A program made the translations under genes and the position numbers. The notes beneath the pieces are model-generated. The model did not search any database and was not told the origin of the DNA. It saw only the letters and a list, made by a program, of their open reading frames with translations. A DNA stretch of 58,443 bases, counting the filler, from Sluysia triapertura (Eukaryota): assembly GCA_046118255.1 (NCBI GenBank). It is 5 parts of 5 records of this genome, joined end to end, with 100 filler letters (N's around TTAATTAATTAA, not from the genome) between each part and the next. Parts side by side here need not be neighbours in the genome. Positions count along the whole stretch, not along the records: positions 12,832 to 24,420 come from JBJNIA010183091.1; 4 more parts are not named here. One strand, written 5' to 3'. Positions 299 to 47,298 of the stretch are shown one piece after another (position 1 is the first letter of the stretch; each line of letters opens with the position of its first letter).

Positions 299-1858
299 TC
301 AGTAATCGTCCAAATCAACGTTATCATTATTGTTCCAGTAGTATGGTCGCTTTCTCTGCTGTTGAGTAACTGAAGAAGTGGCAGATGAAGTTCGCTGTAC
401 TGACTTTGTAGTAGTGGTTGGTGGTGATGATGGCGACAAAGTTGATGTAGTAAATCTTGATAATAATGATGGTGATGATTTGGATGAGAATTGTTTTGTA
501 GAAGAAGGTGCAGATGGTGGTGGTGTTAATGACTTAATCGTTGGGAGTGCTGCGAGAATATCAAAAAGTGTAGTAGTAGAGGGAAGAGAAAAAAGAGAGG
601 GAGGAGGAGCCGAGCAATTCGGAATAAAAGACACATCCTTCTTGCGAATTAGATTAAGTAAAGGAACTAACTTTCGCGGCGGAATAGGATATAATAATCT
701 AAAAGTTTGACGCCCCCTTTGGATAATATCGTCCGTAGAATAAGACAAAAGGTTGTGATTAGTCAGGTTAATCACTCCATTAAGCCAACCAAAAGCCAGA
801 TCGACAGTTTCAATGATAAGACATGGGTTTAACGACACCATGATCTTATCATGCAAATGACCCAAAAGAAAGGGTGCACGACATCGATGTCCTTAGCTTC
901 AGAGATATCGAAATCTTTCATCTCTTGAATGTCCCTAAGAAAGTTTCTTATTCGAAGACGGGGTTTTATATTAATGTTTATGTGAAACTGTCTTGAATAA
1001 GGCGTACAGGAAAGCTGCGTTATGTGAGGACGGTTCATAAAGTCGAATGTGTACGAGTAAGAAATGAAAACAAGACGGTCCTCATCATAAGCCGACATAA
1101 GGGGACATGAGTGAACGAAGTCCCATTTCTCCAGCGTTCCAAATTAATGGTGTTCTCCTTATAAAGGTTAGGCAAGAAAGATCTAAATGTAGATAAAGGT
1201 AAAGGAAAAAGCAATGCTACAGATGTCGGATATTCGGTGGCCTCTATCAGAACAGTACATTTCTTATGTAATTTGGTCAGATATAAAGATGAGAAACTAT
1301 GAACGCGTGTATAAAAAGGTGCGCCAGTATCAACCAAAGTCACCTTAACAATTCCTCTAGCAACAACCAAATAGAGGGATTCGATAGTCTTAGGGACCTG
1401 ACTGAGACCATCCAAAGTGATGAAAGAAGATTCTGGCTTCAAGGAAAATATGTGTGTGGCCAGATTTACATTCAGCTCGGATTTCAAAGAATTAGGTGTT
1501 GAAACAGAATCGCCAAAGAAAGCAGGAGTGATACTTTCGTGGCAGTATTTGTTGATGTACACATAGAAATTCTTTTGCTGATTCACTAGTTTAGCTTGCA
1601 TTTACTAAATGAAACAAGAAGAAAATAAAACAGTACAGAAAAATAAAATAAGTAAGCTATTTTAATGATGATTATGAAATTTGAATTAATATATAATAGA
1701 AATATATAATTTTAGTTATATATAATATATAATATATAACCCTTCCTCTTTAGAAAAGGGTTAAAAGGCTTGATTGGTTTAGGAAGATTCTCATCTTGAT
1801 TTTTGTAAAAATGCTTTAACTGTCGTCTCTTTCTGTTTCTTTTCTGAGACTTAGTCAA
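299..1858 (-). pseudogene. Unknown gene family copy 1: basic upstream exon, intron, frameshifted main exon (beta-rich, possibly cupin-like N-terminal half; Ser/Thr/Pro tail)
   Basis: ORFs 1035-1601, 829-1098 and 299-865 overlap in successive frames and align collinearly with 20961-22053 (+), e.g. ATHIFS..GLSQ..VVA.GI.KV.L..TRVH.FS.L, IKPRLRI.NF, TFRLLYP. A pyrimidine tract plus AG precedes 1601. The upstream exon ~1741-1858 reads LTKSQKRNRKRRQLKHFYKN..KPI. Confidence 0.75.
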
Positions 1859-4800
1859 ATTTTTTGGAAAATTTGGGGGAGTGTAAATTGTTAATTAATT
1901 AGCCATAAAATAAAGTGTAAATTGTTTATTATCTACAGTTTATTTATCGGCGATTTCTACTTAAGGATTATCATTGAAATCAGTTCTATAATCTGATTTC
2001 TTTACATTATTTAATATATCATCCTTTTCTTTATTAATTTTGTCAGTCATATTTTCAATAATATTCTCGATAGTATCCGTGTCATGTTCTATCAATTGTT
2101 TTAATAAAGAACGTGGAGTGTTATCTAGTTCCACATTATCAATATCATCTTGGGTTTCATCAGTAGATTCATCTGTAACCGCGTTAACTACCTGAGCTTT
2201 TAGTATCTCCTTATGTTTTCCCAAGGGATAGCTATAGTTGTTTAAAAAATCATCTGGTGCTAAACACAGACTGTTGAGGCGTCATTAGATTTAATCATAT
2301 CAGTAATTTCTTCAACTAAGGTAGTCACTGGTAATTCCACTGGTAATTTACTAATCCATCAATTAATATTTTTATTTTCATCAAAGCACTTGGTTCTGTT
2401 ATTCTTTCCATTTTGGCAATTTTTCTTAATAAATTTCTTGCTTTTGTTTTCCACAAATGGATTGAGGCGGTGTCCCTAAAGTCTTTTATTATTCTCATTT
2501 TATTTCTAGTCCAGCTAACTTATTATTTTCCTTGTATTTCTAATTTTACTGCAAAAGTCTAACTGCTTATATAGTAGTTGGCAATCGTTTTGGAGATTGG
2601 AAATAGGACAAGACCGAAATAATTACTTATTCAATCCAACCAATTTTAATGATTAAATTTTAACAATAATTTCCGTCTAAGTCCAATTTCATTATCTTTT
2701 ATAATGGGATTTCTCCTTTCAACATAATTAAACCAAAATTTAACATTGTTATTACATGAATATTCTGTTAATAACAAAATTTATTAACTTATATTCAGGA
2801 TAAAATTAATGAAACAATAAATTTATTTTTCATAGAAATCTTTTGTATAATACGTTGTGCGACAACTGTATATCGCATGTCGAGTTCAATAAGATATATT
2901 TGAATTGGTATCTTCATGAATATCAATTTAATATATACTTAAATAAATAAATTTAATAAATAACTTAATTTTAACTTAAATTTAATTTAAAATAAATAAA
3001 TTTAATTTTAAATTATAAAAACTAATTAAGATAACTAATTTTTACATAATTAAGAATACTAATAAAACTCCTCATTTTACACTAATTCTAATGTTATTTT
3101 ATCATGGACAATCATTCCTCCTTAACTTATCAAATTAGACAAATTTTAATTAAATTAATTAATAAATGTACTTTTAATAAAACCCAATAAAAGGTTATTT
3201 CTTCGTGTCTTTCATTTTTTCATTTTGATTCCAATATTTTATACATTTATTTTGTTATCAAAATTCATCATAATACTTTATATCGATTCCTCAATGATGT
3301 TTATTTTATTTTTATACTATGATTATAACCCTTATGTTCCTCCTTATCTTTAACGAAACCGAACATATTATTTCATATATTATATGCATGTTTATTTCTT
3401 TTATTTTTCTTGTCATCAAATTGTTAATAAAATTTCTGAATATATATGAAGTATTTTCATAGGAGTTTAATCAAGACTAATCCGAGTATGTGTTAACAAA
3501 TAAGTTTCAAGTAAAGAATTTAAGTTAAGTATATATACTTTCTTGAGAAGAAACTCATAATTATAGTATTACGAAATAAATAAAGTGCTCTCAGATCAAT
3601 ATTAGCATTTTTGATGTTATAATTTTATGTTTTAAGAAAAATTGACCAATTAAAATTAATTATAATTTTATTTTGGTTGATGTCGCGTAAGTTGCAAAAT
3701 CGTTTAATTCATTAAGGTTGAAAAGACGAAAGAGTGAATTATTATTGAAATATGGATTACTTAAATTATAAACATTGTTATTTATAAACAGATCAAAAAT
3801 TAAAATAAGGAATTCATAATTACTATAAAACTCATTTATTAAATCAATAAACATTGGAAGGATAAAAGTTGATAGAATGTTAGGAAAAAATCTATTAGTA
3901 TAAAAATTGTAATTAAAACTCCTCACTTTAATCTTGCCACTGACAAATTCGATTAAGAGGTAAAGACTTGGAGCCACATAGAAAACCATAATTGACCAAT
4001 TAAAAATTGAAAGAAGAAACACAATTTGGCAAGTGTGTTATACGAGTATTTCTACAATAAAAAGATTTAAAATGTTTATATACCATTCTTCTCAGACATT
4101 GAAATCGCATTATACATACATATAGTCCTAGCCACTCTGATCGGTTTGGTAATGACTTTAATTTTAGCCATGAGATTCTTTTTATTTACAACATAAAAAC
4201 TAATTAAAAACTTCATTCCTTGGTAAGCATCAATTTTACTTTTAATGAGCCTCTTATCGACAGAATGAAACTTAATCATTAACATAAAAATATCATTTGG
4301 CGTAGCTTTAATTGTAGTAACCGTTTTATCAACATTGTAAGCTTTGTTCATAAAAATGACTTTATCGAAAATATTAATTTTACTTATTATCAGTATGACA
4401 AGCTGTGTTCATCAACATGAATTTATTAATAATGTTGAAATTAGTCGTGAACATGATGATTTCTTTGATTATAACTTTGTTGGTGATGATTGCTCGACTT
4501 TGCATTTAATTATTACAAATAAATTTACGAAAAAAATGAAATTTATTGGTAAATTTAAAAATTAGAATTAAATCTGATATTTGTGACATTTATTGTAATT
4601 GTCAATTTTATTGCACTTTTGTTGTAACACCTGATGTGAAAATTTTCAACAACTTTCTCGTTTCTAATTTATTATACTTCTGATAAAATTTTGTCAACTA
4701 GTATTTAGTAGTTAATTTATAATTCTCTAAATTACCATATTTTACGATGCAGTAATTTAGGAATTTATTATTTTTACCAAATGACAGTACTTTGATTATC

Positions 4801-12731: not shown

Positions 12732-12831
12732 NNNNNNNNNNNNNNNNNNNNNNNNNNNNNNNNNNNNNNNNNNNNTTAATTAATTAANNNNNNNNNNNNN
12801 NNNNNNNNNNNNNNNNNNNNNNNNNNNNNNN
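12732..12831. other. Artificial contig linker (N44-TTAATTAATTAA-N44)
   Basis: The identical 100-bp spacer with stops in all six frames recurs four times. Confidence 0.97.
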
Positions 12832-15120
12832 ATCGGCATTATTGCGCAATTATGATTTTATATTTCACACGTATTCCTTATTTCACTGCCATTTGCGCCA
12901 TTACCATTTGCTTTATCTCTCATTCACTCCACTGCTTGATATGTAAACTACTGCGAAATTTCTACATCTTTAAGAGTACAACCTTCAAGCCTCACGTTTG
13001 CTGCTCTTATTTAGCCCACTATATCAATCTTTAGTTACATAATGCAACAAGATCCTCTTGTAAGCTCTCAACATGATGAAGTGTAAGAACTGGTCTTCGT
13101 TGGGTAATTTTTATTACTCAACCTACCGTTCCTTACAAACAGTTGGCTCTTTACTCAACTTGGTCACTGCCTCGGCTGCTCATGGAACAATTGCTGATTT
13201 TTTAAAGAATACTCCGCGTGAGAATGTTCGGCCCAGTGGCGGGGGGGCCAGAAGATCATATTATTCGACTCGTCTCGAGCAATCCCTTGAGGAACTACTT
13301 GGGGCCCTACACCACACCACCCCCAAAAGGCAGCATGGTCAGCGCTCCTCTGCCAGAGAAGTTAAGAGAGTGAGTGAGTGTAGGAACTCCTCTTTGTTTC
13401 CAGTCAGCAGGTGAACCCGCTTCACAGAAGTCTATGAAATCAGCAGTTCCCAAACGATCACAATGGAACCTTTACTCCGCGTGTTCACGCTGGATCCAGT
13501 AGCGGAGGGATCCGAAGATCTCGTTCAATGAACGATTCAATCCAAACTAGGCAGGTGGACCTGCCAATCTACAGATGGTCAAGTGTACCACCTACGCGAA
13601 ACTGAAACTCCACGCGTACATGTTGAACCTAGTCGCGGAGGGGTTCGAAAATGGTCACCAACTATCGAAAACCGGACAGTTGAAAATGACAATGCTGGAA
13701 ATCAGAAACTTGGTAACCACAAAGTCAAAACTCCGCTGGTACACGCTAAACCTAGTCGCGGAGGGGTTCGAAGCATAAACAAAAACCCACAATCATTGGC
13801 CAATGAGAAAAATGGAGAACAAAGCATCAAGAAAAGGAAAGTGAGATGCCCAGTAGCGCAGGGGCTCGAAGATCGCAGCAGCACGCAGCACGGAAATCTC
13901 AAAATGAAAATCTAAAGGATAGTATTTGTTCTCTATGCCAAAAATATTTAAAATCACCTTTTTTAAACTTTCTAAATATCTCAATCCAAGTTAGGGGTTA
14001 TTGTTGCAACTTTTTTCACTTTAACACTTTCTTTCAATACTTACTACGGACCGAAATGTTATTGACTTGCGAAACTTTCTGCATTATAATACTTTTCTTT
14101 CCTCTTCTCATAATTTCCGAACCCCATTCCCTCCTTTTTGTAAGCATGTACTTAAGCCGCATCAATAACGAATTTAAAATTCTCTATGGTCATTCTGACT
14201 TTTCACATCTTCATCTCAAAGCTCCTCCTATTTCGAAACGACCTGTAAAGGCTACTACAGATATCATCTTGGAGACTCAAAAACCAATCAATGACTTTCT
14301 GGAAGGACTTCAGTTACTTTTCGATGAGAACTCCCTCTTGCCTCTACAGACTCCAAACTTCTTAAGTTTAAGTTTAATACTACTAATTATAATGCTACTA
14401 CCGTCACCGCTACTGCCACTAGTACTGCCATACCTGATGTCTGTCATCCGAAGTACCTGATGACATTGACCGGTTCGTTAAGTCTCAATAATTAACTTCT
14501 GACTTTTACTTCATTTCTGACTTCGCCAATGAGCCCTTGTATTTTGGTTCGGTCCGGTAGCGGAGGAACTAGAAGATATCCTGTAAATAATACTCAGCAT
14601 GCCAGGCCCAGTTGCAGAAGATCTGTTTATCCAATAGTGCAGAAACTCCGTGGGTACACGTTGTACCCAGTCTCGGAGGGGTCCGACGATCTCATGGTTT
14701 CTACAACCCAAACCAACTCCTACGACTGCGGTCCTCTTCTTTACGGATATATCAGACGCATCTCCTCTCAGAGGTCTTGCACTCGACTAACTGCTGCCAA
14801 CATTCGCTCTTACATCAAATCTCTTCGTCCTGAAAAACGCCTGATCGGGGCAGGTAAAATCTCTTCTACTCTTTTCTACCATTTCTACTTCTGTCACTAT
14901 GATGACAAGTATTCAGAATGACTATCATAATATGCAGTTGAAGCCTTCCTTCGAGACCAAGTCTGTCTTGACTCTTCCATGAGAATTATAAAACCTATCT
15001 GTTCCATTTCTCTTCTTGCTGGCGATTTATACGGGTTCTATAAATACTTTCCCTTGTCTCACTTCGCGAAGACCCAAAGAGATTTTAAATATACTCCGCG
15101 TGTTTATGATGGACCCAGTT
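12832..15120 (+). mobile_element. Copy A of the Ulp1-protease / pseudoknot-repeat element (rearranged, internally deleted)
   Basis: Repeat units at ~13211, 13474, 13607, 13730, 13846 (partial), 14530-14690 and 15093 (partial). The protease C-terminal part QTNSYDCGPLLYGYIRRISS...EKRLIGAGK aligns with 17836-18954. 12832-12917 matches 17508-17590 in inverted orientation. Confidence 0.7.
14695..15060 (+). pseudogene. Ulp1/C48 protease C-terminal fragment (catalytic Cys motif), zinc fingers deleted
   Basis: QTNSYDCG motif. FYFCHYD is joined directly to DKYSE*, whereas copy B has the zinc-finger segment between them. Confidence 0.75.
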
Positions 15121-17835
15121 AGAAAATTTAAAGATTTAAATTTTCTTCTTCATTATTCTTCTTACTTCTCTTTTGAATCTTTTTCTGATTCTAAAATACT
15201 CTCTAAAATACCTTCCTTTCTCTCAACATCTGTCTAGAATCTCTCGTTCTAAAGTTACTACCTACACCTTAATCTTTCCTTTTCTTGGCACTACTTATTC
15301 TGAAAAATTTACTATCCTTAAATCTGTCAAATTCCCGTCCTCACAAGTCAACAAAAAATAATCGACATCGCTTAAATAAAGATGGAAAAACAAGTAAATA
15401 ATTTTTGTTCCGCCCCACCATCTCAGTCAGCAGTGTCGATGGATTCTCAGAAGAGAAAATATTTTACATGTTGATGAACATTATATGTTCAATATCCAAT
15501 CAATACAAATTAGTTAATTATTTAGAATTATTAAGTATGGGTTATCTGATATCGACCAATATCATGGTAATGTTAAATTATTATAAAATTTATAATTTTA
15601 TATTTAAAATATTGAATATATATTCAATATTCATTTATTTAGATAAATGTTATGAAATATTAAACATTATTTAATATTCAAAAAGATAATGATGAATAAG
15701 AATAAATATAAAATTTATAATTTTATATTTAAAATATAAGTACAAGTTAGATAATGTAATCACGTTGAATTTTAAATTTTATAAAATTGGTAGTGTTGTC
15801 CTGAAATAAGTATTAAAGACGTTAGAATGGCACGTAATTTGCATCCAGATGACCAGCATGCGGTTATATATATTACTCAAGAAGCTGCAATAACAATTTA
15901 AATATCGGTCAGTGGCAAAACCATCACGTGTCGGCAAGGTCTACAAATAACCTAAGATGTAATAATTCTATGTTTTATATGATTAACAATTTTGTCAATA
16001 AATAGAATAACTTTGTATTTTTATATTGTAATTATACTTAATTGATACGTGCCTTAAGCACCATTTTCGTAATCATTATTGTTTACAGATTTATATGGAT
16101 TCTGATAATAGATCAAATTACAAAGTTGATTGTAAAACAATTAATAATAATTTAGTAAAATGATACTTTTAAAGCTAATAAAAATAATACCACAATACTT
16201 ATCTTTATATAAAGCAATCAAAATTGTTTGCACTTACTAAAACTGCTATAGAAAACCTTTCGAAACCTTACTACCTTCTAATAAAATATCAACCCTGCTA
16301 GAAAGCTTAATCGTTCGCTCAGAGATAAATTATTATTGCTTAAAGATAAGGCTTCATTTCATAAAGATTCAATCAATAAAAAACTTCTGCTGGCATACCT
16401 GATCAAATACGCAATGATGTAATAAAAATTACTGATAATTTTAATCAACTTAATAAATTAAATAATGAACTAGTGTGTCATGAATAATTATCGAAAATAA
16501 GTTCAAGCTTTTTTGAATATACAAATGCACAACTAACCAAAATGCAATATATTACATAACATAGAGACTATTATTAAACGTAGGAAAATGTTACTTAATG
16601 TTATACAAAACCCACATTTAACTTTACATACCCTCATATCTTCAATCACATTAAAATATTTGCGATATTTCACAATGCAGCCTTACTACCCAATTTCGAC
16701 ATATTTTATACTTACTGATAGGATAAATCATTAAAAATCATTAAAACCATCACATTTAAAATACATTAAATAATTTATAAAACATTATAAACTTCTTACC
16801 AAAATCTAAGTCTGATATGCTTCCAGAATTCAGTCAACTGAACCATTTTCAATCTTCCATATAAATGACTAAAATCCACTAATTCAGCTCTTAATTTTCT
16901 AAGTCATGTTTATTAATTTATTAGTAATTACTTATAAATTGCAACAATTATTTCGCAATTAACGATAAAAATAATTCAAAATCATATAGAAAAGTAATAC
17001 TTAAAATTCATACATTTAAACAAACGTTATAAAAGTAAATTATACAATTAATTTTTTTAAATAAATTAATTTAGTATCTCTAGTTTATTTATTTTATATT
17101 CAAAATATAATTTTAGAATGACTTAAAAGTGCAGTGAGTTTGCAATGTTTATCAAATAACTGCAAAAAAAATTTTTAAAACAAAATAAATTAATGTTCTA
17201 TCTCTTAATTCTTTAAAATTTTTCTTGTATTTTTAAACTATAACTATTTTCTATTTCGTTGGAAAATAAAGAATAACGAAATAAATTAACAATTTTGTTA
17301 TTGACAAAATTTTACTCGATGTTGTAGTATTATGCACTTAAAAATCTGCGTCGATCATGAAATTTATAAATATTAGCAATTTAATAATTGAAAATTATAT
17401 AAATTATTCACATTATATATAGAATAAAAATTATACAAATGTTGGATTTAGTGAAAGGTGGAGTAGATATGAGTGTTGTAACTTGTATAAAAATAAAAGA
17501 ATATTTATAAAGCAAATGATAATGGCGCAAATGGCACTGAAATAAGGAAAACGTGTGAAATATAAAATCTTAATTCGCAATAATGCTGATTGTAATTGAT
17601 TTAAGTAAATTAGCATTTAACACAATATATACTACTGCCAAAATACGCCAAAGTAGTACAATAAACTTTTGAAAAAATATAGCTAAACTTCCTTCGCGAC
17701 TCTTAAAAGTTGCTCATGTTGGCTACTAAAGTGATTAAAAATTAGAATTATCGAATAGGTGGGTTTTATGATTCTAATAGAATTGTCGGAACAGACCTGG
17801 TCACGAAGAAAAGCCTCAACTGCGTTCACAGATAG

Positions 17836-18954
17836 TCAATCTGATGACTTATCTTGAGTGTTTACTGGAAGATCAACGAGAGAGTCAATTTCAATAGAAA
17901 AGTTGGAGACGGATTGAAAGTGATGGAACAGAGAGCCGATGGAAAGAACTCGGAGACAATGGGAACAAAAGAAGGATGTGTCTGAAGGATTGAGGTCATG
18001 CGAAGCAAGATGGCGAGTTACATTGTTGTTGGTATCCGTAGGAGTAAAAGATTGGCCACAACGGTTAACGTGACAGTACAAAAGACAGTCAGAGTGGCAG
18101 AAATAGAATTGATAAGAAGAGAAGGAAGAAGAAGAAGGTTTGCCAGCTCCGACCAAGCGTTTTTCGGAATAAAGGGCCTTAACAATGAAAAGGATAGAAG
18201 TCGCATTAAAACGAGTGCAATGCCTGTTGGAAGAAAGGCGTTGGATGAATCCACAGAGAAGAGGACCGCAGTCAAAGGAGTTGGTTTGAAGAGAGTGAGT
18301 GCGACCGGCGACGATAGAGTAGGAAGGATGATTGTAAAGTAAGGAGAATTGAGAAAGGATAATGCGGGCCTTATCGGTTCGATAGGGATGAAGATTAGCA
18401 GAAAGAGGATCCATAAGTTCGGCTTTTCCAGTGCATTTGTCAGCAAAGATAAGGTACCAGTGTTTGTTAAGGTTAAGAACAAAGAATATTTTAGTAGCGG
18501 AAAGAACTTTGTAAAGGTCAATAAAGGTATGATAGGTTGGGGATTTGTGAAAAAGAGACTCGGTCGCGAAATCAGGTACAAAGAGAAAGTCTGGAGATAG
18601 ACTGAGACTGTCAACAAAAGTTATGATGTCATCAGACGAGAAAAGATATTGTAGATGGCGAATGTCAGAAGGTTTAGCATTCCTAGAAAGATGAATTTGT
18701 TTAAGTTTCGAAATCTTTGCGTCAATAGTAACAGGGGAATCAAAAAGGTTCAGTGAGGCATAAAAGTCATCGAAAGAAGTTTTAGATGCTGCAGAATCCT
18801 GTTCATCGTTATCAGAATGAGTAGATGACGCAATATAAGTGGAAGGAGGAACAACATCAAGAGGAGGAAGAGCAATGGACTGGATTGATTCAGAAGAAGA
18901 AGGAACATCAGCAATAGTAGGAGTAACTTGATTATTAGAGCCGACGTTTTTCAA
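17836..18954 (-). CDS. Ulp1/SENP-like (C48, clan CE) cysteine protease followed by C2H2-type zinc fingers; part of a longer decayed polyprotein
   Basis: Catalytic motifs in order: IFFVLNLNKHWYL (His), ELMDPL (Asp), QTNSFDCG (Gln/Cys). Then CHVNRCGQSF..VTRHLASH and FFCSHC..LFHH. No introns. A Ser/Pro-rich linker continues upstream to the repeat array. Confidence 0.85.
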   Translation of the reverse strand: MKNVGSNNQVTPTIADVPSSSESIQSIALPPLDVVPPSTYIASSTHSDNDEQDSAASKTSFDDFYASLNLFDSPVTIDAKISKLKQIHLSRNAKPSDIRHLQYLFSSDDIITFVDSLSLSPDFLFVPDFATESLFHKSPTYHTFIDLYKVLSATKIFFVLNLNKHWYLIFADKCTGKAELMDPLSANLHPYRTDKARIILSQFSLLYNHPSYSIVAGRTHSLQTNSFDCGPLLCGFIQRLSSNRHCTRFNATSILFIVKALYSEKRLVGAGKPSSSSFSSYQFYFCHSDCLLYCHVNRCGQSFTPTDTNNNVTRHLASHDLNPSDTSFFCSHCLRVLSIGSLFHHFQSVSNFSIEIDSLVDLPVNTQDKSSD

Positions 18955-19276
18955 GAGTTTTTCCCGAAGTGCAGGGCAGAGTTTCCGAACCGGTGGGAGG
19001 TTTGAAGGAGGAGGTTAGAGTGTAATTTTTGAAGACTTAGGAGCAGAGGATGGAAAAGCAGAAGAAGAACGCCTAAGAAGAGAAGAATGAGATTGACAGA
19101 ATCGAGCAGGGGCATTTTTAGGAATTAAGTAAAAAGAAGAAGTAGCAGAAGTAGAAGCAGGTTTAGGAAGATCATAAGAAATAGTCCTACAAGGAGCAAG
19201 GCTTGGTAGAAGATAGAAGTAAGGTGCAGAAAGAAGCAGAGGAAAGTCAGATTTTGGAAAAATATCTGCAGCGGAT

Positions 19277-19853
19277 CTTCGGGCTCCCCGCTACTGGGCC
19301 CACTAAGCGGAGTATTATTTTTAATAATTGGTTGTTTGGACTTTTTGGATTTTCTAGCCCCTCCGCTACTGGGCCGGACATGCGGAGTATTCTTTAAATC
19401 TGTTTCTGGTTTTCGGTCCCCTCCGCACTGGGACCAGCATTTACCAGCGGAGTATATTTATTTCTAAATTTTCGGGCCCCTCCGCTACCGGGCCGGACAT
19501 GCGGAGTATTCTTTAAAATATCATGCTGCCGGAATCTTCGGTCCTCCCCGCTACTGGGACCAAAATGTACAAGCGGAGTATATTTTTCGAAGCCATAGAG
19601 TTTTCGGACCCCCCGCGAATTGGTCCACTATTTACACGCGGAGTATCTTTATCATGTTGGAATAATCTTCGGGCCCCTCCGCGACTGGGCCGGACATGCG
19701 GAGTATTATTTGACATTAACATGGATCTTCGGACCCCCTCCCGCGAATGGATCCATTATGTACACGCGGAGTATTTTTAACATTTTTAAAATTCTGGAAA
19801 ACTCGAAAATCTCTTCGGGCCCCTCCGCGACTGGGCCGGACATGCGGAGTATT
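19277..19853 (-). repeat. Tandem array of nine GC-rich units, consensus ATACTCCGC-N6/12-GGNCCC-AGTA-GCGGAG-GGGNCC-GAA, with unique AT-rich spacers
   Basis: Unit starts (A of ACT) at 19850, 19772, 19704, 19644, 19579, 19507, 19453, 19388 and 19313. Confidence 0.95.
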
Positions 19854-20749
19854 TTTTGTCACAGGAGCCGAATAAGGTGATCTTCATTTTGCGGGAACGA
19901 ACAAAAGTTTTTACACAATATTAGACCATGCAGTGAGAAAAATAAGAGTTTTCTTACATTTTCAATAAAATATACATACCATCTCGGTTTTACTAATCGT
20001 TTCATCACCGTATCTGGCTCTTAAGGATTAGACCATACAGTGACAAAATAAGAAATATGCAATTAAATACATCATTCTCGTAAGTTATCAGACAACTTTA
20101 AATTTACCTTTATAAGTATTATTTGTGGGCGTTTAAACTGAGTGTTACGACTTCTAATTATGTCAATGGAATAATTACTAATTAGATCTTAATGATATTT
20201 CTTTTTGCAACACTTACTATTCATTTTATTTTTCGAATTCATAGACTTTACTTATTTATAAACGAACTTATTACCATTTTATAAGAACTTAAAGTCGGGT
20301 TGAGAAATTAGGAACACAAATTATTTACATACCTCACCATTTGTGATGGTTTTCCATCCATTTTTAGTCATATGTGATGGTATTAATTTTCACACTAAAA
20401 TAAGCAGTTATATTATAAAAATATTTATTTTAATAGTGTTACTTAATTTACGTAATTATTCTTTATTTACTTATTATATTTTTATTTTTAGCTAGTTAAT
20501 ATTTAGTGATCATGATTTACACAACCTGTTTAATTTGTCTGCGGTCCATACGAAAATTTACAGATTTCGTTTCTTCTGTCTCTATCTTTTGTTTAATACG
20601 TCTCTTTCTCCTTTACCATCATGTCCCCTATGTCTTCACTGTCGAATTCATTTCTGACTCGGAACAGCCAGGGATTGATATTATTCAATCAGTAGGAGGA
20701 GGAAAAATCTTGGTAAGCATGGGTTGGTGAGACCAACCGTTGAGTTTAT

Positions 20750-22053
20750 TGCAGGTCTTACCAAGTCAAAGAAACGTAACAGTCGTAGACGGTACCTCAA
20801 ACACCTTTATAAGACTAATAATTCTAATAATAAGAAACCAATTAACCACTTTTCGAAAAGGAAATAGGACTTTCATAACCTATTACATTTACTTTTAGTA
20901 TATATATATATATATATAATTTTAAAAACTTACGATTTTTATTATTGTTCATAATTTTAGCTCCATTCAAGCTCGTATTTTACAGCAACAGAAAAACTTT
21001 TATATCCATGATGACATGTTCTGTCATAAAGCATTATCCCTGCTTTCTTTTCTAATTCTGTAGAAACTCCCAACAACCTTAAGAGTGAGCTAAATCTTAA
21101 CATGGCTACGCACATTTTTTCAATGAACCCTGATCTACCCCGTATTTCTTTGAATGGTCTTTCGCAAATACCAGACGACATTAACTCTATCTATATAGTT
21201 GTGGCTGGAGGAATTACTAAGGTCTCACTTTTGGAAAAAGGTTTACCCTTCATTACCAGAGTTCACGGGTTTTCCACACTGCACGTTACAAATATTCATA
21301 AATGGTGCAGGATTATAGTTGAAGCTGGTGAGTTCCCTACATCTCTTTACCCTCTTCTTGTTGGAGAACAGTCGTTTTTGCCCAACTTGTATGCCAAAAA
21401 TATTGTTAATCAAGACCAATGGAACAAATGTTCCCTTTTTATCAACCTATGATGAATACCGTTTAACTTTTGTAGCTTTTTCTTACGCCTTCGATTTTCT
21501 TCATAAACCTTATGTCCCCTAATCAAAACAGTTTCATTCAGAAGCTAACATTAAACCTCGCCTCCGAATAAAGAATTTCGTATGGGATAGAAAGGATATA
21601 AAAGATGAAGATATCGCGAAGGCTAAGGATGTAGATGACGTCCGACTTTACTACATTATAAGATATTAGTTTCCTTACATTCTCGTATTATAATTGAAAG
21701 TGCGTTTGCTATTCGGATGGCTTAAAGAGGTCAAAAATATGTCGAACCACTATCTGTTATCTTATGACACAGCTGATCACATTTCGCGTGCTCGACGAAC
21801 TTTTCGTTTACTTTATCCCGTTCCGATACGTATGACATGCACACGTATGACGTTTGAGTTAATATCGCTTTTTGATTACATCAGAAAGACATTGTTTTTA
21901 CCTAGTTGTAATTTATCACCTCCCTCTTTTTTTCCTTTTGTTTCTTCTTCATCTGCTAATTCTACTACTTTGACTACTACAACTTCTCTTTCAGCACCGT
22001 CATCATCATCGACATCAACTAAATTATTACTCACGGGAGACTTTAGTGTGTGA
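20750..22053 (+). pseudogene. Unknown gene family copy 2 (paralog of 299-1858)
   Basis: Exon GLTKSKKRNSRRRYLKHLYK..KPI, an intron ending TTTTAG at 20960, then IQARILQQQKNFY..LKSELNLNMATHIFS... Roughly half of residues are identical to copy 1 by eye. Frameshifts and deletions are present. Confidence 0.75.
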
Positions 22054-23783
22054 TGTACCCTAAGCCAATTTAGTTGTTTAAAGATTTTTTGATGATTGAA
22101 TGTGTTTATAAATTCATGAATTAGAGACGTTATTATAATTTTGGGTTTTGTAATGAATTTAATATTCTTTCTGTAACATTCGTGTTGACGATGTTTTAGA
22201 AGTAAATTTAGTACGCTGTAAGTAATTTTGACGCTGAAAGTAACATGCGGATCACTTAAATCTTTACTAAGGTCCATGAACATATTTTTTGCGTTAGTTG
22301 AGAATTGCCTAAGCCTAATTTTAATTTCTTTTACTAAATTATAGATTTCAAAATTTTTGACAAATTGAAGAGGTTTAGCTTCATAGTAAACAAAAATTTC
22401 AACAAAATTAATTTCTATTAATCTTAATATACATTTAATCATTAATAAATTAAGAGATAAATCTAAAGTTCCTTTTAGATCGTGAATGTCAAAATTAAAC
22501 ATAAATAGATAAATTGATATATATTTGGTTATTAAAAATGTCCTAATCAATTTTAAAATTTCGTTTTCACCTAATTCTTCTTCCTCTGAACTTTCAAGAT
22601 ACGTCACATTTTGTTGTTCTTCACGAATCCATTTAATGGTTCTGTAAACTAAATTAAAACTAAATGAACATGAATTATTTTAGTATAGTACAAATAATTA
22701 AGAAAGAAAACAGCGTTTCCTTGATACATCGATTCACAAATCAATAATGTGCATCTAGATAATCTGCCGGTGTAGAGATAATGCATCGCTGACTTCAGAA
22801 CCTCAGAATTATCGGAATAAATAGAGTTTAACTCTTTTTCGAATGTTCGCATAACAATGTCTGAACGTAGATCGGTTACGTCGTGCAAAATACTAATATC
22901 AACTTGTGGCGGTACTAGAATTATAGTGCAATACTGTGACTTAGTAATAATTCGTAGGATTTGATCATGACTTTCCTTTTTTGATTTGTTTGGAATGGTA
23001 AGTGTATTAATTTCAATTAGAAAATTCCTGTAATACTTCTGAGAAAATTTCATCATATTAAATACTTTATACACATAATTGTTTATCATGGTAAATTCGT
23101 TTAGATACGATATCGTATAGACGTAATATTGACGTAATGATTAAGTAATACCATAATTACTAATGGTTGAACAGAGTAGATTTGGTAAAGAATTAGAGTG
23201 TTTTTGACAATAGTTTGCTGAATCATAGTGACTCCTTTTTTTAGATTGTCATCATTGTGTATATCTGCAGATCCATTTCGAGTAGAATCATTGTCTGGAC
23301 ATCTCAGAAAAGCTAATATTTCGTTGGAGAATATTAGTTCGTTTGAAAACTTTATGTCTACAAAATTGAGGTACCTCATCATTAGCTGCATATGATCCTA
23401 AATAATTATCTTCAAAAAGTGTGCTTGCTAATTTTATCATCATTTCTTGTAATCCTGATCTGCAAATACGATTTATAACATTTATCTTTATAGTTGGATT
23501 TTCGCAAAATATACTTGTATCTTCAAAATAACTAAATCGTAATTTAAAATGTGACTCAGATCGATTCAAACGTTGTACACAATTAAAATACGAAGTCGTT
23601 CAATTTTTTTTGTTTAACTTTACATTTGTCCCGCGATTCGTGAAATCTTTTAAACTCCACAGTATCTAAATTAATTTGAAAAGTACTGCTTTTTAAACTC
23701 TTTACTATGTTTTTTAGATAGCTCAGACAGCGGATATATACGATTACAAAATTGTGATAATTTTTTACTTTGATATATTTCAC
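22050..23783 (-). pseudogene. Long intronless frameshifted coding relic including a divergent BTB/POZ-like segment
   Basis: Five abutting ORFs. YCTIILV...DLRSDIVMRTF...NSEVLKSAMHYLYTGRL resembles the BTB pattern (DV.L.V...LAARS..F..MF...E.F..LL.YLYTG.L). Confidence 0.45.
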
Positions 23784-24420
23784 TGCACTTTTGAATTTTG
23801 TCTAGTCTGGAATTTTAATTGTGTTGCTTTTTTTGTTTTCTGCCCAATTAATAAAATTTTTATTTTATTTTCAATTCTATTATTAGTATACCCAATCAGA
23901 GTATTTTAGAGTATGGTAAGAAATATGCACTCTGATTGGGTTGTAAATAATTTTCATTTGTAAATGTTAGACTAATAACCGTCATCAGTACTGACATTCC
24001 AAAGACGTTTTTAAATTGTAGTATCAGTACTGATGGCGGCAGCAACTAATTTAATGGCTTTAATCAAAATTATTAAAATTATGTTATGTAAACAAGAGCA
24101 ATAATAATAATAACAACAATAATATTACTGTTATTATTATTATCAAGAAATAAAAATAAAGTACATAAATATTTCTTTTATTGAAAACCACAAGATCTTT
24201 TCTATTCTACATTCTTTCATTCTACATATATAAAATTAAGAGACATAAAACTGATGAAATACTGTGAAGGAGCAACGATAACAAGGTATACTCGTCTCGG
24301 TTATCGCTGTTGCTTCATATTTAAAATAATGAACTCTTTAAGACTTTATTAAGTTTATTTATAAAGGTAAAAGAAATGACTTGAGTTATACTTAAGACGA
24401 AGAGTGTTAGAATAAATTAC

Positions 24421-24520
24421 NNNNNNNNNNNNNNNNNNNNNNNNNNNNNNNNNNNNNNNNNNNNTTAATTAATTAANNNNNNNNNNNNNNNNNNNNNNNN
24501 NNNNNNNNNNNNNNNNNNNN
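24421..24520. other. Artificial contig linker
   Basis: N44-TTAATTAATTAA-N44. Confidence 0.97.
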
Positions 24521-35346: not shown

Positions 35347-35446
35347 NNNNNNNNNNNNNNNNNNNNNNNNNNNNNNNNNNNNNNNNNNNNTTAATTAATT
35401 AANNNNNNNNNNNNNNNNNNNNNNNNNNNNNNNNNNNNNNNNNNNN
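35347..35446. other. Artificial contig linker
   Basis: N44-TTAATTAATTAA-N44. Confidence 0.97.
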
Positions 35447-39815: not shown

Positions 39816-40444
39816 ATAAGTAAATAAGAAATTGAATATTGAAAAATAAAATCTAAGAGTATTATTATTGATATTGTTATACATACTGATCAACTAAAAT
39901 GCAAATTGCAATGTAATAAATACTACTTTGTTGCAAATACCACTGGAGATATTTAAAAAAACTCGGATACTAAAAATACAAAATAATATAAAAAGCAATA
40001 GGTTGTATACATTATTCGATTGACATCAACAAAAAGAGTATATTTTTAATATTTCCAATTTTGAATAACACTTCTAATTTGGCTAATCATTTGTCAACTT
40101 TATGACACTTATGTTTATCCCATTAATATACATTTAAAAACACATTTTATTTACTGTTTATTTATTTTATTCAAACAAAATAAATTTATTTAAACAACTT
40201 CATATTATTTTCAATTATTATTTACGTAGTTTTTCGATCAATTAAATATCCATTATATAATTTATTGAATATTTAAATTTTAATAATTCATTTCTTTAAA
40301 TTTCAAATTTATTCAGAAATTGAACTAATAAAATATTATTTCATCAAATGTTCCAGATGTAAGGATTCATATTTCAGTTATTGATTATCTCCTATTATCA
40401 AATTTTTCCAAACAGAAAATGCATTTAATATAATACCTAGAAAT

Positions 40445-40841
40445 TTTCAAGCAGCAAGACTAATTCTCCAAGTGGAAGATCTCATAAAACCACCTTATCT
40501 TAAGGAATTACATCGGTTGCCAATAAAAACAAGAATAGAATTCAAAATCATGACAATAATTTACAAAAAAAATTTGGAAACCAAGATGGATATTTCATTG
40601 AGACATAATAATCTATACAGAATCCACAGTGATAACAAACTAGGTGAAAGGTTATATACCGTTTATGTTTCAAAAATATACAACCAGTTACCAGAGAATG
40701 TCAAATTACTGGAAGAATATGAAATATTTAAGAAAATGGCAAAGTTGTTTCTGTTTCAGAAGTATTATAGTGAATGATTTATTTTAAGCACTTTTGAGTA
40801 CTTACTTTGTAGTAGATGTGAGCGCAATATAAATTAATATA

Positions 40842-42244: not shown

Positions 42245-44558
42245 AATATAAATTGAATTCTTTAAGTTTAGCTGTATTTTAACATGACATATTGACAATA
42301 GATTTTAATTCTTGTAACAATGATAAATTGAGCTCGCGATTTTGTTATTTTGATGTATTTTCTTTCACGATTCACGATTTTCATTTTGGGGTAAGTTTAA
42401 TTTTTATGATTTACGCGTTTAAGTTAAATTATTGAATTGATATAAGTTCTTTCTGATTTAATTTCAAAGATTTAAGTTTCTCGTTATTGCTGATTTATAT
42501 TTATTGATAAGTTTAAGTTGTTTTATTTGAATTTAAGTTAATTATTTAAATAAGTTTAAGAATAGTTTTCAATTATTTTCCGTTGAATAAGTTATGTATT
42601 CGATAAGTTTAGGTTAATATTTGATTTTACTTATTATTAAGTTATATAATGTTCATTCTGTTGCGTCTTAAGTTTATTAAATGAAGAGGGAGCTTCCTGA
42701 AAAATATTATTAAAAATTTTCAACAATTAAATTAGTTTGCAACCTCGATATATTTTTCATTACAACAGAAAACAAAATACAATTTACTAATTGATCTCTG
42801 CTAGATAAGAGCCATTCTGAGTTTTTAATAAAACAGTCCTTCACACAAATCATCACAGCATTCTTTGAGAATTCAGCCGACAATAATAATGACGTTGACA
42901 TTTACATGGCATGGTCTTCAAAACTTTATTAGATACAGAACTATTAATCTACTCGATCTACTTTCACTTAAATTACTCCTCACATTAAGATAACAATGCA
43001 TTATTAACATGCATTAAAATAATGAATTTAATTTTAGTTTCTATAATTCAATTGATTTTCGGTTTTCTACACTCATTTTTCTATTGAAAAATGTTTAAGG
43101 TTTTTATTCTCAAACAAACAACTCCACAGACACTTCATACTTACTTCTAGATTCTCCTTCTTCATAGCAATCATCTCATATACAATTCATTATATTTTCA
43201 TCGTTCTAGGTATTAAAAATTCAACATTCCATGATTTTTTCATCGGAAGGCCTTTTTAAAACAAACGCATACTACATGCAAACGTCATTTAATTAAATTA
43301 AGTTAATTAAGATTTTAATTAATTAATATATTTTTAGACTTAATCTTATTTTATATTTAAAGGTTTTTTTATTAAGGTCGTAAAGTTATTAGTAGTTCTT
43401 AAGGCATTCATGAGGCATTCAACTTCACCACTCAGAATAATTTTTCTAATTCTTTATGTTAACTACAGCTATCTTTAATGTTAGCAGCAATAATTTTATT
43501 TCTCAAATATTTTAAATATTTCAACTACTTTATAAGGTTTTTCAAAAGTCTTAAATGCTTATCAAGGTCTCAAAGATTCTTAAAGGTTAATTAAGTCTCA
43601 GATGATCTCAAGGCCAATAAAAAGTTTTGCTACTCAAGAAAAGAAAATCTAAATCTTAGCAGCCAATAGGAAATAGAAAAAAAGGATACAATAAATTTCT
43701 AAAAGTTTTCATCAAAAAATAAAATATTTTGAAAAGACTGAAAGAAAATTATGTTACTATTAACAAAATGGCTGACAGTGATACCGACGAAGCTACAGTG
43801 AATTGGAACTGGAATATAATGAAATAGATAATGAGTCGATTGAGGTTTTGAAAGCGGTTGAAGTAGATAGTACTGATGAAGAATCTACGCTTAAAACTAA
43901 AAACTAAAACTAAAAACGATGACTAAGAACAAAAGTCAAATAACGCTAATGATGAATTGAGTCTATCGATTCTCATGAAACTAAAAATGATGATGATGTC
44001 TGCTACTCAAATACTTATGATAAAGAACGAAAGTCGATGATGAACTATCTAAAATTACTAATATTACAATTTATACTTAAAGTTATCTAGTATTTTTTAA
44101 TCTTTTTCTATCTCCTATAAATTTAAAAATAATGATTACGTCTACTACTTAAATAATAACAATATAGATGTTAACTCAAGTAATACTGTTGGAGAATGCA
44201 AGATTAACTATCTTTATAACTGTGAGAGTAACATATATTTACTGTGCACATTTCATTTCGATGTCGAGAGTAATTTCATTGATACCTGTGGACATGAAAG
44301 AAATAACAACTTACGTTATTATGTTATACTCCATTGCCATAATTTCCCTTTTGCCACCTTCAAGAAATTGCATGAATCAAATGAAGAAATCAAGTGCTGT
44401 TATAGTTTCGCCATGGATTTTCAACTGCGAATCAACTTCCACGCCAACGAGGCCTTCAAGTCAGATGAAATCAAACAGGACATGGCCGCTGCAAGCTAAT
44501 TATACCAATATAAAGTAAGACTTAATATCTTCTATACTTTTTTATGTGATGATCTTTT

Positions 44559-47198: not shown

Positions 47199-47298
47199 NN
47201 NNNNNNNNNNNNNNNNNNNNNNNNNNNNNNNNNNNNNNNNNNTTAATTAATTAANNNNNNNNNNNNNNNNNNNNNNNNNNNNNNNNNNNNNNNNNNNN
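47199..47298. other. Artificial contig linker
   Basis: N44-TTAATTAATTAA-N44. Confidence 0.97.

Follow-up and report, generated by a model that had tools for sequence, protein, structure and literature searches.

A shared UGA-CUA stop followed by constrained codons in two relics of a Ulp1-bearing mobile element of Sluysia triapertura: a candidate for translational readthrough

A UGA stop followed by CUA constitutes the type II readthrough motif, and in-frame stops of this type (UGA-CUA or UGA-CGG) are known from the replicases of alphaviruses and plant viruses (PMC3159437). In gammaretroviruses, which are long terminal repeat (LTR) viruses, an in-frame UAG accompanied by a pseudoknot limits the gag-pol fusion that bears the reverse transcriptase (RT) (PMC5009743). 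Reinitiation and translational coupling are known routes to the expression of a second open reading frame (ORF) in non-LTR retrotransposons, as in the two-cistron RNAs of SART1 and LINE-1, where a stop-restart overlap or a spacer joins the cistrons and the second product is controlled (PMC5972666). Elements of the R2 group are usually described as having a single ORF (PMC3636483). One protein is likewise described for the NeSL clade (nematode NeSL, Utopia-1_TSP), non-LTR retrotransposons with a Ulp1-like protease to which the R5/LIN lineage of flatworms is related (PMC4640811). The DNA analyzed here is a stretch of 58,443 nucleotides of Sluysia triapertura (assembly GCA_046118255.1), hereafter the window, in which two diverged relics of one Ulp1-protease element, copies A and B, share an in-frame TGA CTA with constrained codons on both sides.

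The window consists of five contigs joined by artificial spacers of 100 nucleotides (12732-12831, 24421-24520, 35347-35446 and 47199-47298), each made of 44 N, a six-frame stop linker and another 44 N. It is AT-rich, with a GC content mostly of 20-28%. The two copies lie in inverted orientation on the second contig (12832-24420, JBJNIA010183091.1): copy B at about 19860-17740 on the minus strand and copy A at about 13200-15120 on the plus strand. Both are decayed, and they are 69% identical across their longest blastn match. An earlier note had pointed to TGA CTA in both copies, and the coordinates and translations bear this out as written: the six nucleotides occupy homologous sites at 17838-17833 on the minus strand in copy B (TGA at 17836..17838) and at 14919-14924 on the plus strand in copy A (TGA at 14919..14921). 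The homology that places the two stops at the same position is local, because copy A has a 78-codon in-frame gap nearby. The note had also named UGA-CUA as a leaky context; it is indeed the type II motif (PMC3159437), and CTA is scarce in the element, where it makes up 2 of the 44 Leu codons of the copy B ORF and faces CTA in none of the 8 other aligned Leu/Leu pairs. Past the stop, copy B continues with CTA and 31 more codons (17740..17835, minus strand); its homology to copy A ends about 32 codons after the TGA, and its frame stays open until a TAG at 17685-17683. Copy A continues with CTA and constrained codons at 14922..15017 on the plus strand, interrupted by a TAA at 14928-14930.

The codons past the stop were then compared between copies. 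From +1 to +25, 11 are identical, 9 differ synonymously, 4 non-synonymously and 1 is a sense codon in one copy and TAA in the other, a recount that agrees with the nine synonymous differences and five changed residues given before. Over +1 to +29, differences at codon positions 1, 2 and 3 number 4, 5 and 15 (binomial P 0.003). Pairwise codon maximum likelihood gave a downstream ratio of non-synonymous to synonymous substitution rates (dN/dS) of 0.11-0.15 (likelihood-ratio test (LRT) against 1, P 4e-5 to 1e-4), and a second pairwise codon-model run gave 0.10 (grid interval 0.02-0.3); the upstream value, for 101 aligned codons with the first method, is 0.15. With downstream values of 0.10-0.15, not about 1, neutrality is rejected. 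The 29 codons past the stop evolved under purifying selection, as did the upstream ORF, and the likeness of the two values implies that the post-stop segment was translated in both lineages after their split. Synonymous-type changes flank the stop on both sides (codons -5, +2 and +7 onward), and past the TGA the +1 and +2 frames are interrupted by several stops in at least one of the copies. Recent gene conversion between the copies was considered and rejected, as 12 of the 23 post-stop codons with identical amino acids differ synonymously.

A conserved stop, constraint from codon +1 without a spacer and the lack of a shared start make readthrough the simplest way of crossing, and we put at roughly 0.6 the probability that ORF1 had a conserved stop past which type II (UGA-CUA) readthrough led on to a second Ulp1/RT region. 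The site has an in-frame UGA between coding segments, CUA 3' of it in 2/2 copies and constraint past it, as type II sites do. In the active element the upstream frame, with its N-terminal region, Ulp1 protease and zinc fingers, would have ended at the UGA, where most ribosomes would terminate. A minority would decode it by a near-cognate tRNA, aided by the 3' CUA; Trp or Cys would be expected, the tRNAs of both being among the near-cognate tRNAs that induce readthrough (PMC8136774). These ribosomes would go on to translate a second Ulp1-like domain and, if the relatives described below are a guide, RT and endonuclease. The stop would thereby determine the proportion between a protease/zinc-finger protein made in plenty and an enzyme fusion made in small amounts. 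The arrangement resembles the alphavirus and plant-virus sites in its in-frame UGA and CUA and in the enzyme presumed downstream, and differs from them in that no 3' stem-loop was detected and that this is a retroelement relic, known from sequence. Its logic would be that of gammaretroviral gag-pol, with UGA in place of UAG and a non-LTR element in place of an LTR virus.

The chance of a shared stop was computed from the nonsense rates of both copies, with means taken over six settings. These rates reflect lesions elsewhere: besides the shared TGA, copy A has 2 nonsense codons in 133 aligned codons and copy B has 1 in 516. The active element could have had a continuous ORF with a sense codon at the site, probably TGG, each copy gaining its TGA after death; TGG to TGA is a single transition in an AT-rich genome, P0007, a predicted protein described below, has W at the matching place, and R2-group elements usually have one ORF (PMC3636483). 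Two independent changes of TGG to TGA at this very site have a probability of 0.15-1.7%. For any identical shared stop across the aligned codons the mean is 1.2-4.0% (transition weights 2-4), rising to 6.6% under the most permissive setting, with upper bounds of 5-21%. Lesions of this kind would also leave the CTA of both copies (2/44 Leu codons) unexplained, and the 392 upstream codons of copy B contain no other stop. Two independent mutations, the alternative named in the earlier note, are thus unlikely (1-7% anywhere in the alignment) and are retained here as a rival; a stop shared by chance is unlikely.

A true end of ORF1 at the TGA, followed by a separate ORF2 translated by AUG-independent reinitiation or coupling as in LINE-1 and SART1, would account equally well for the conservation of the stop and for the constraint past it. 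Non-LTR elements offer documented cases of termination-reinitiation (PMC5972666), and among the relatives P0005 ends after its fingers while P0001, P0003 and P0008 start just past the site. The two copies have no start codon in common, AUG or near-cognate, in the interval from the stop to the constrained codons: GTG occurs at +3 solely in B and ATG at +20 solely in A. The only ATG near the stop, in TAATATG of copy A, is out of frame and absent in copy B. The frame and the constraint run straight through the stop from codon +1, where SART1 and LINE-1 have an overlap or a spacer (PMC5972666), and the rare CTA is left without a reason. The resemblance to these elements would lie in a controlled second product, and we regard reinitiation at this locus as quite unlikely.

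Removal of the stop by splicing was weighed from the sequence around it. Both copies have GCAG|TT, with the CAG| at +19 nucleotides, which could be the acceptor of an alternatively spliced intron whose branch point includes TGAC. Codons +3 and +4, among them the TAA of copy A, differ just before the CAG| and 11 identical residues follow it; splicing would also excuse this TAA at +3, and copy A has an in-frame donor, CAG|GTAAAA, 65 nucleotides upstream of the stop. Copy B has GC at this donor, no GT donor is found in both copies, and the T-rich tract is missing that accompanies apparent TTTAG acceptors elsewhere in the window (by eye). The CAG itself follows from conserved Ala-Val codons, changes of synonymous type at codons -5 and +2 are what translation across the stop would leave, and a retroelement would presumably tend to lose an intron. 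Splicing is therefore a very unlikely explanation of the shared TGA.

Two further alternatives concern the reading of the codon and of the opposite strand. The host is very AT-rich, as would suit a nuclear code in which UGA is Trp, and a UGA read as Trp or as selenocysteine (Sec) would be no stop at all. The only Trp codon of the copy B ORF is TGG (1/1), and a second repeat family has 6 TGG and 0 TGA in 313 aligned codons, the reverse of what is expected of an AT-rich genome with UGA as Trp; the frames examined contain 7 TGG and, this site apart, no TGA, and this code was rejected. As for Sec, the site aligns to Cys in none of 7 homologous domain starts, and neither a selenocysteine insertion sequence nor another Rfam match was found in 12800-24400. 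Recoding of either sort is highly improbable. Adenosine-to-inosine editing of the UGA was considered and set aside, a 5' G neighbour being disfavoured for such editing. An antisense ORF that is open at the site could also have caused the constraint, as its mirror frame has a dN/dS of 0.17 and no stop there. The sense frame is expected to cast such a shadow on its mirror, and the antisense fit is the worse of the two (LRT 10.3 vs 17.0); stops close the antisense frame within about 30 codons in copy B and 55 in copy A, with many more over the Ulp1 region. Rejected on account of these bounding stops, it has a probability close to nil.

The nature of the element was examined through the 392-codon stop-to-stop ORF of copy B (17839..19014, minus strand), which comprises a Pro/Ser-rich part, a Ulp1 domain and zinc fingers. 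The first Ulp1 (Peptidase_C48) domain, at 18154..18651 on the minus strand, has HW, DP and Q...DCG motifs that are intact by inspection, and Pfam matches Peptidase_C48 at 18501-18220 (E 7.6e-6, above the gathering score). Two C2H2-like zinc fingers follow at 17920..18075 on the minus strand, the first found with a pattern, the second by eye and by alignment with P0005. Word-index protein searches with copy B gave no match among 2535 longer and 1928 near-length candidates. The full HMMER search of 1.84 billion representatives found 6 matches with E no higher than 1e-3, all with Peptidase_C48, and a search with P0001 gave 4 matches out of 3894 candidates, including P0001 itself, P0007 and P0008. 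In P0001, P0007 and P0008, all predicted proteins, two Ulp1 stretches are followed by RT and, by eye, by a C-terminal zinc knuckle and an endonuclease motif; on inspection, neither the catalytic His nor the catalytic Cys is present in their second Ulp1. Three of the relatives have their start within the first domain. P0009 is laid out in much the same way, with a single Ulp1 stretch recognized by Pfam and an RT, and in P0002 Ulp1 runs into an RT-like region. P0005 (951 amino acids) aligns to copy B over Ulp1 and fingers (E 2e-11) and ends 12 residues past its fourth finger; P0004 and P0006 are Ulp1 proteins, uninformative on architecture.

From this architecture, copies A and B are most likely relics of two diverged lineages of an R2-group (NeSL-like) non-LTR retrotransposon, by which we mean likeness to NeSL rather than membership of that clade. 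The Ulp1-like protease and the zinc fingers are N-terminal, as expected of the R2 group; the single ORF is not seen, given the shared in-frame stop. Ulp1 is common to this element and the NeSL clade. One protein is described there (PMC4640811), whereas here the stop lies between Ulp1 and zinc fingers on one side and a probable second Ulp1 on the other; since neither copy has RT or endonuclease, the likeness is that of Ulp1 and of the relatives' architecture. Of the flatworm lineage related to NeSL, R5 is said to have two ORFs. The DNA transposons Ginger1 and Mutator also carry Ulp1 (PMC2836005), as does the mobile element here. In Ginger1 it is C-terminal (PMC2836005), unlike here, and the scanned ORFs of the window have no transposase match, while the best relatives are RT-linked; a Ulp1-bearing DNA transposon of the Ginger1/Mutator type is a less likely alternative. 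Scans of prokaryotic (GTDB) genomes with the relatives' alignment gave 62 pattern matches, none confirmed. No tRNA gene was found nearby and no Rfam gene in 12800-24400, and single-sequence structure prediction of the copy B ORF reached a predicted local distance difference test score of 35, too low for use.

The extension past the stop is probably the start of a second Ulp1-like domain, with modest support from profile comparison. Tandem Ulp1 domains occur in the relatives P0001, P0007 and P0008. With a two-block profile, copy B's first domain, the positive control, ranks 1 among 116,702 six-frame positions, the extension of copy B 81 and that of copy A 284; 15 of 3000 shuffles reach the score of the former extension and 14 of 3000 that of the latter (P about 0.005). 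The profile register sets the stop on an aromatic/His position, where the 7 homologous domain starts have W in 2 cases, H in 3, A in 1 and Y in 1. Trp at the UGA, as the earlier note supposed, is plausible (W occurs in the RT-linked active domain of P0007) yet not established by these residues. The first residues of P0001, P0003 and P0008 are Met at three separate places, 13-29 residues after the stop-matching position, and these starts, with the end of P0005 after its fingers, may give a weak hint of a conserved stop.

Several results weigh against readthrough, beginning with the extension itself. It receives no support from Pfam, PDB or BLASTP against P0007. In an automatic hidden Markov model (HMM) search with a MAFFT-built Ulp1 alignment its best tile ranks 1366 of 19957, whereas the first domain of copy B ranks 1. 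In the comparison with Peptidase_C48 profiles that the earlier note had proposed, Pfam and the automatic HMM were negative and the two-block profile gave modest support. The profile was built from only 7 homologous domain starts, and its support is only modest because the blocks were anchored by hand after the extension had been seen. Both copies end before the His-Asp-Cys triad of the putative second Ulp1, and with both broken off 3', no RT or endonuclease remnant was found in the window. No 3' stimulatory RNA structure was detected in the roughly 100 homologous nucleotides available (z = +1.63, +0.66 and +0.17; consensus fold -4.65 kcal/mol). In P0007, W stands at the stop-matching position with 28 residues upstream of it, which may mean that this distant family has a sense codon there; contig edges or gene calling may account for where the other relatives start and end. 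The stop is kept in 2/2 copies, only two and both degenerate, and if the TGA of copy B were a lesion at a Trp codon, copy A would share it with a probability of 8-24%. The single ORF described for R2-group elements (PMC3636483) counts on the same side.

If readthrough is true, it would add to the non-LTR class, in which second ORFs are expressed by reinitiation or coupling and the R2 group is described as single-ORF, an enzyme-dosage control like that of retroviruses. Gene callers would then file such elements as dead or shorten their proteins; the unusual starting points of P0001, P0003 and P0008 hint at this. The ingredients are each known already; their combination, readthrough in an R2-group non-LTR element, is a candidate novelty, credible but unproven. 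No report of it was found in titles and the beginnings of abstracts, a search that left subscription papers and Repbase reports mostly uncovered and so is weak evidence of novelty.

Upstream of the copy B ORF its frame continues for 91 codons (19015..19290, minus strand) until closed by a TAA at 19017-19015, probably a nonsense lesion. Across 17839-19290 on the minus strand the 290 codons upstream of the protease domain contain no in-frame ATG, and the sole in-frame ATG of the 392-codon ORF, at 18414, lies within that domain. The frame begins in the last unit of the repeat array described next, as if initiation were AUG-independent. Copy A is more fragmented. The C-terminal part of its first Ulp1 domain and the linker occupy 14709..14918 on the plus strand, and a fragment of the domain's start lies in a different frame at 14459..14551 on the plus strand, with a TAA at 14489-14491; with the TAA at 14928-14930 and frameshifts, these make up its decay. 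The 78 zinc-finger codons of copy B (18087-17854) are missing in frame at 14903/14904, five codons ahead of the shared TGA. Over 14400-15120 on the plus strand copy A is a mosaic, where repeat units replace the protease core and the 3' continuation. The mosaic and the exact in-frame loss suggest template switching or a rearranged non-autonomous derivative. Beyond A and B, no further copy was found in the window, where the 8-mer TGACTATC occurs 3 times against 1.36 expected.

Both copies contain a GC-rich unit of 40-60 nucleotides, present 18 times in the window, always on their sense strand (9 in B, 9 in A); a profile built from the 18 units found no others there, and the repeat motif gave 0 matches in the GTDB genomes. 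In copy B the 9 units form a tandem array of twister-like pseudoknots 5' of the ORF (19274..19857, minus strand). In copy A, on the plus strand, 5 are dispersed 5' of the coding fragments (13204..13877), 3 stand in place of the first Ulp1 catalytic core (14542..14695) and a partial one lies near the end of the post-stop frame (15087..15119). Of 202 cells in two interlocked helices 84% are paired, and the 12 two-sided changes all fall in the second helix; none of 500 shuffles reached the observed pairing and slid controls gave 47-61%, figures that overstate the case, the units being related and the structure having been read from the same units.

The unit has CUCC-GC, GUCCCA, GC, GGAG and GGG in common with Schistosoma twister ribozymes (PMC8501958). 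By comparison with Table 1 of that article, P2 (CUCC/GGAG) with an adjacent GC and a pseudoknot of the CCC type are present, while the P4 stem and the GAGGG 3' loop strand after P2 are absent in 18/18 units by inspection; compared with the Schistosoma ribozyme, the unit is without the 3' strand of P4 and the GA in the 3' loop. Rfam gave nothing at E 1 in 12800-24400 and, at E 10 in the array, two chance-level matches, neither of them a twister. With the P4 strand absent and no Rfam match, assignment as a twister was not made. Additional permutations of the twister fold have been searched for in the literature, with no candidates reported (PMC10085705). The unit is a candidate self-cleaving or initiation element, and possibly more novel than the stop. 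Taken together, we tentatively picture, at rather less than even odds, an R2-group lineage in which alphavirus-type UGA-CUA readthrough would divide a single reading frame between much Ulp1/zinc-finger protein and little Ulp1-RT-endonuclease fusion, and which would have a 5' tandem array of an undescribed P4-less twister-related RNA motif, perhaps self-cleaving (perhaps as dimers) or driving AUG-independent initiation.

Other features were observed in the window. Two further coding relics, diverged and frameshifted, form a second pair at 670-1870 (minus strand) and 20745-21830 (plus strand), with 40-64% amino-acid identity; the two have an AT-rich intron-like gap at a matching place, and their ORFs were scanned without a Pfam match. 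Two short ORFs on the plus strand, 40385-40777 and 44101-44499, had no Pfam match either, and by eye they resemble the tail of a long interspersed nuclear element (LINE) RT protein and a transposon-derived fragment. An 85-nucleotide inverted repeat pair of 93% identity lies at 12832-12916, the contig start, and at 17507-17590, just past the 3' break of copy B, and is possibly another small repeat.

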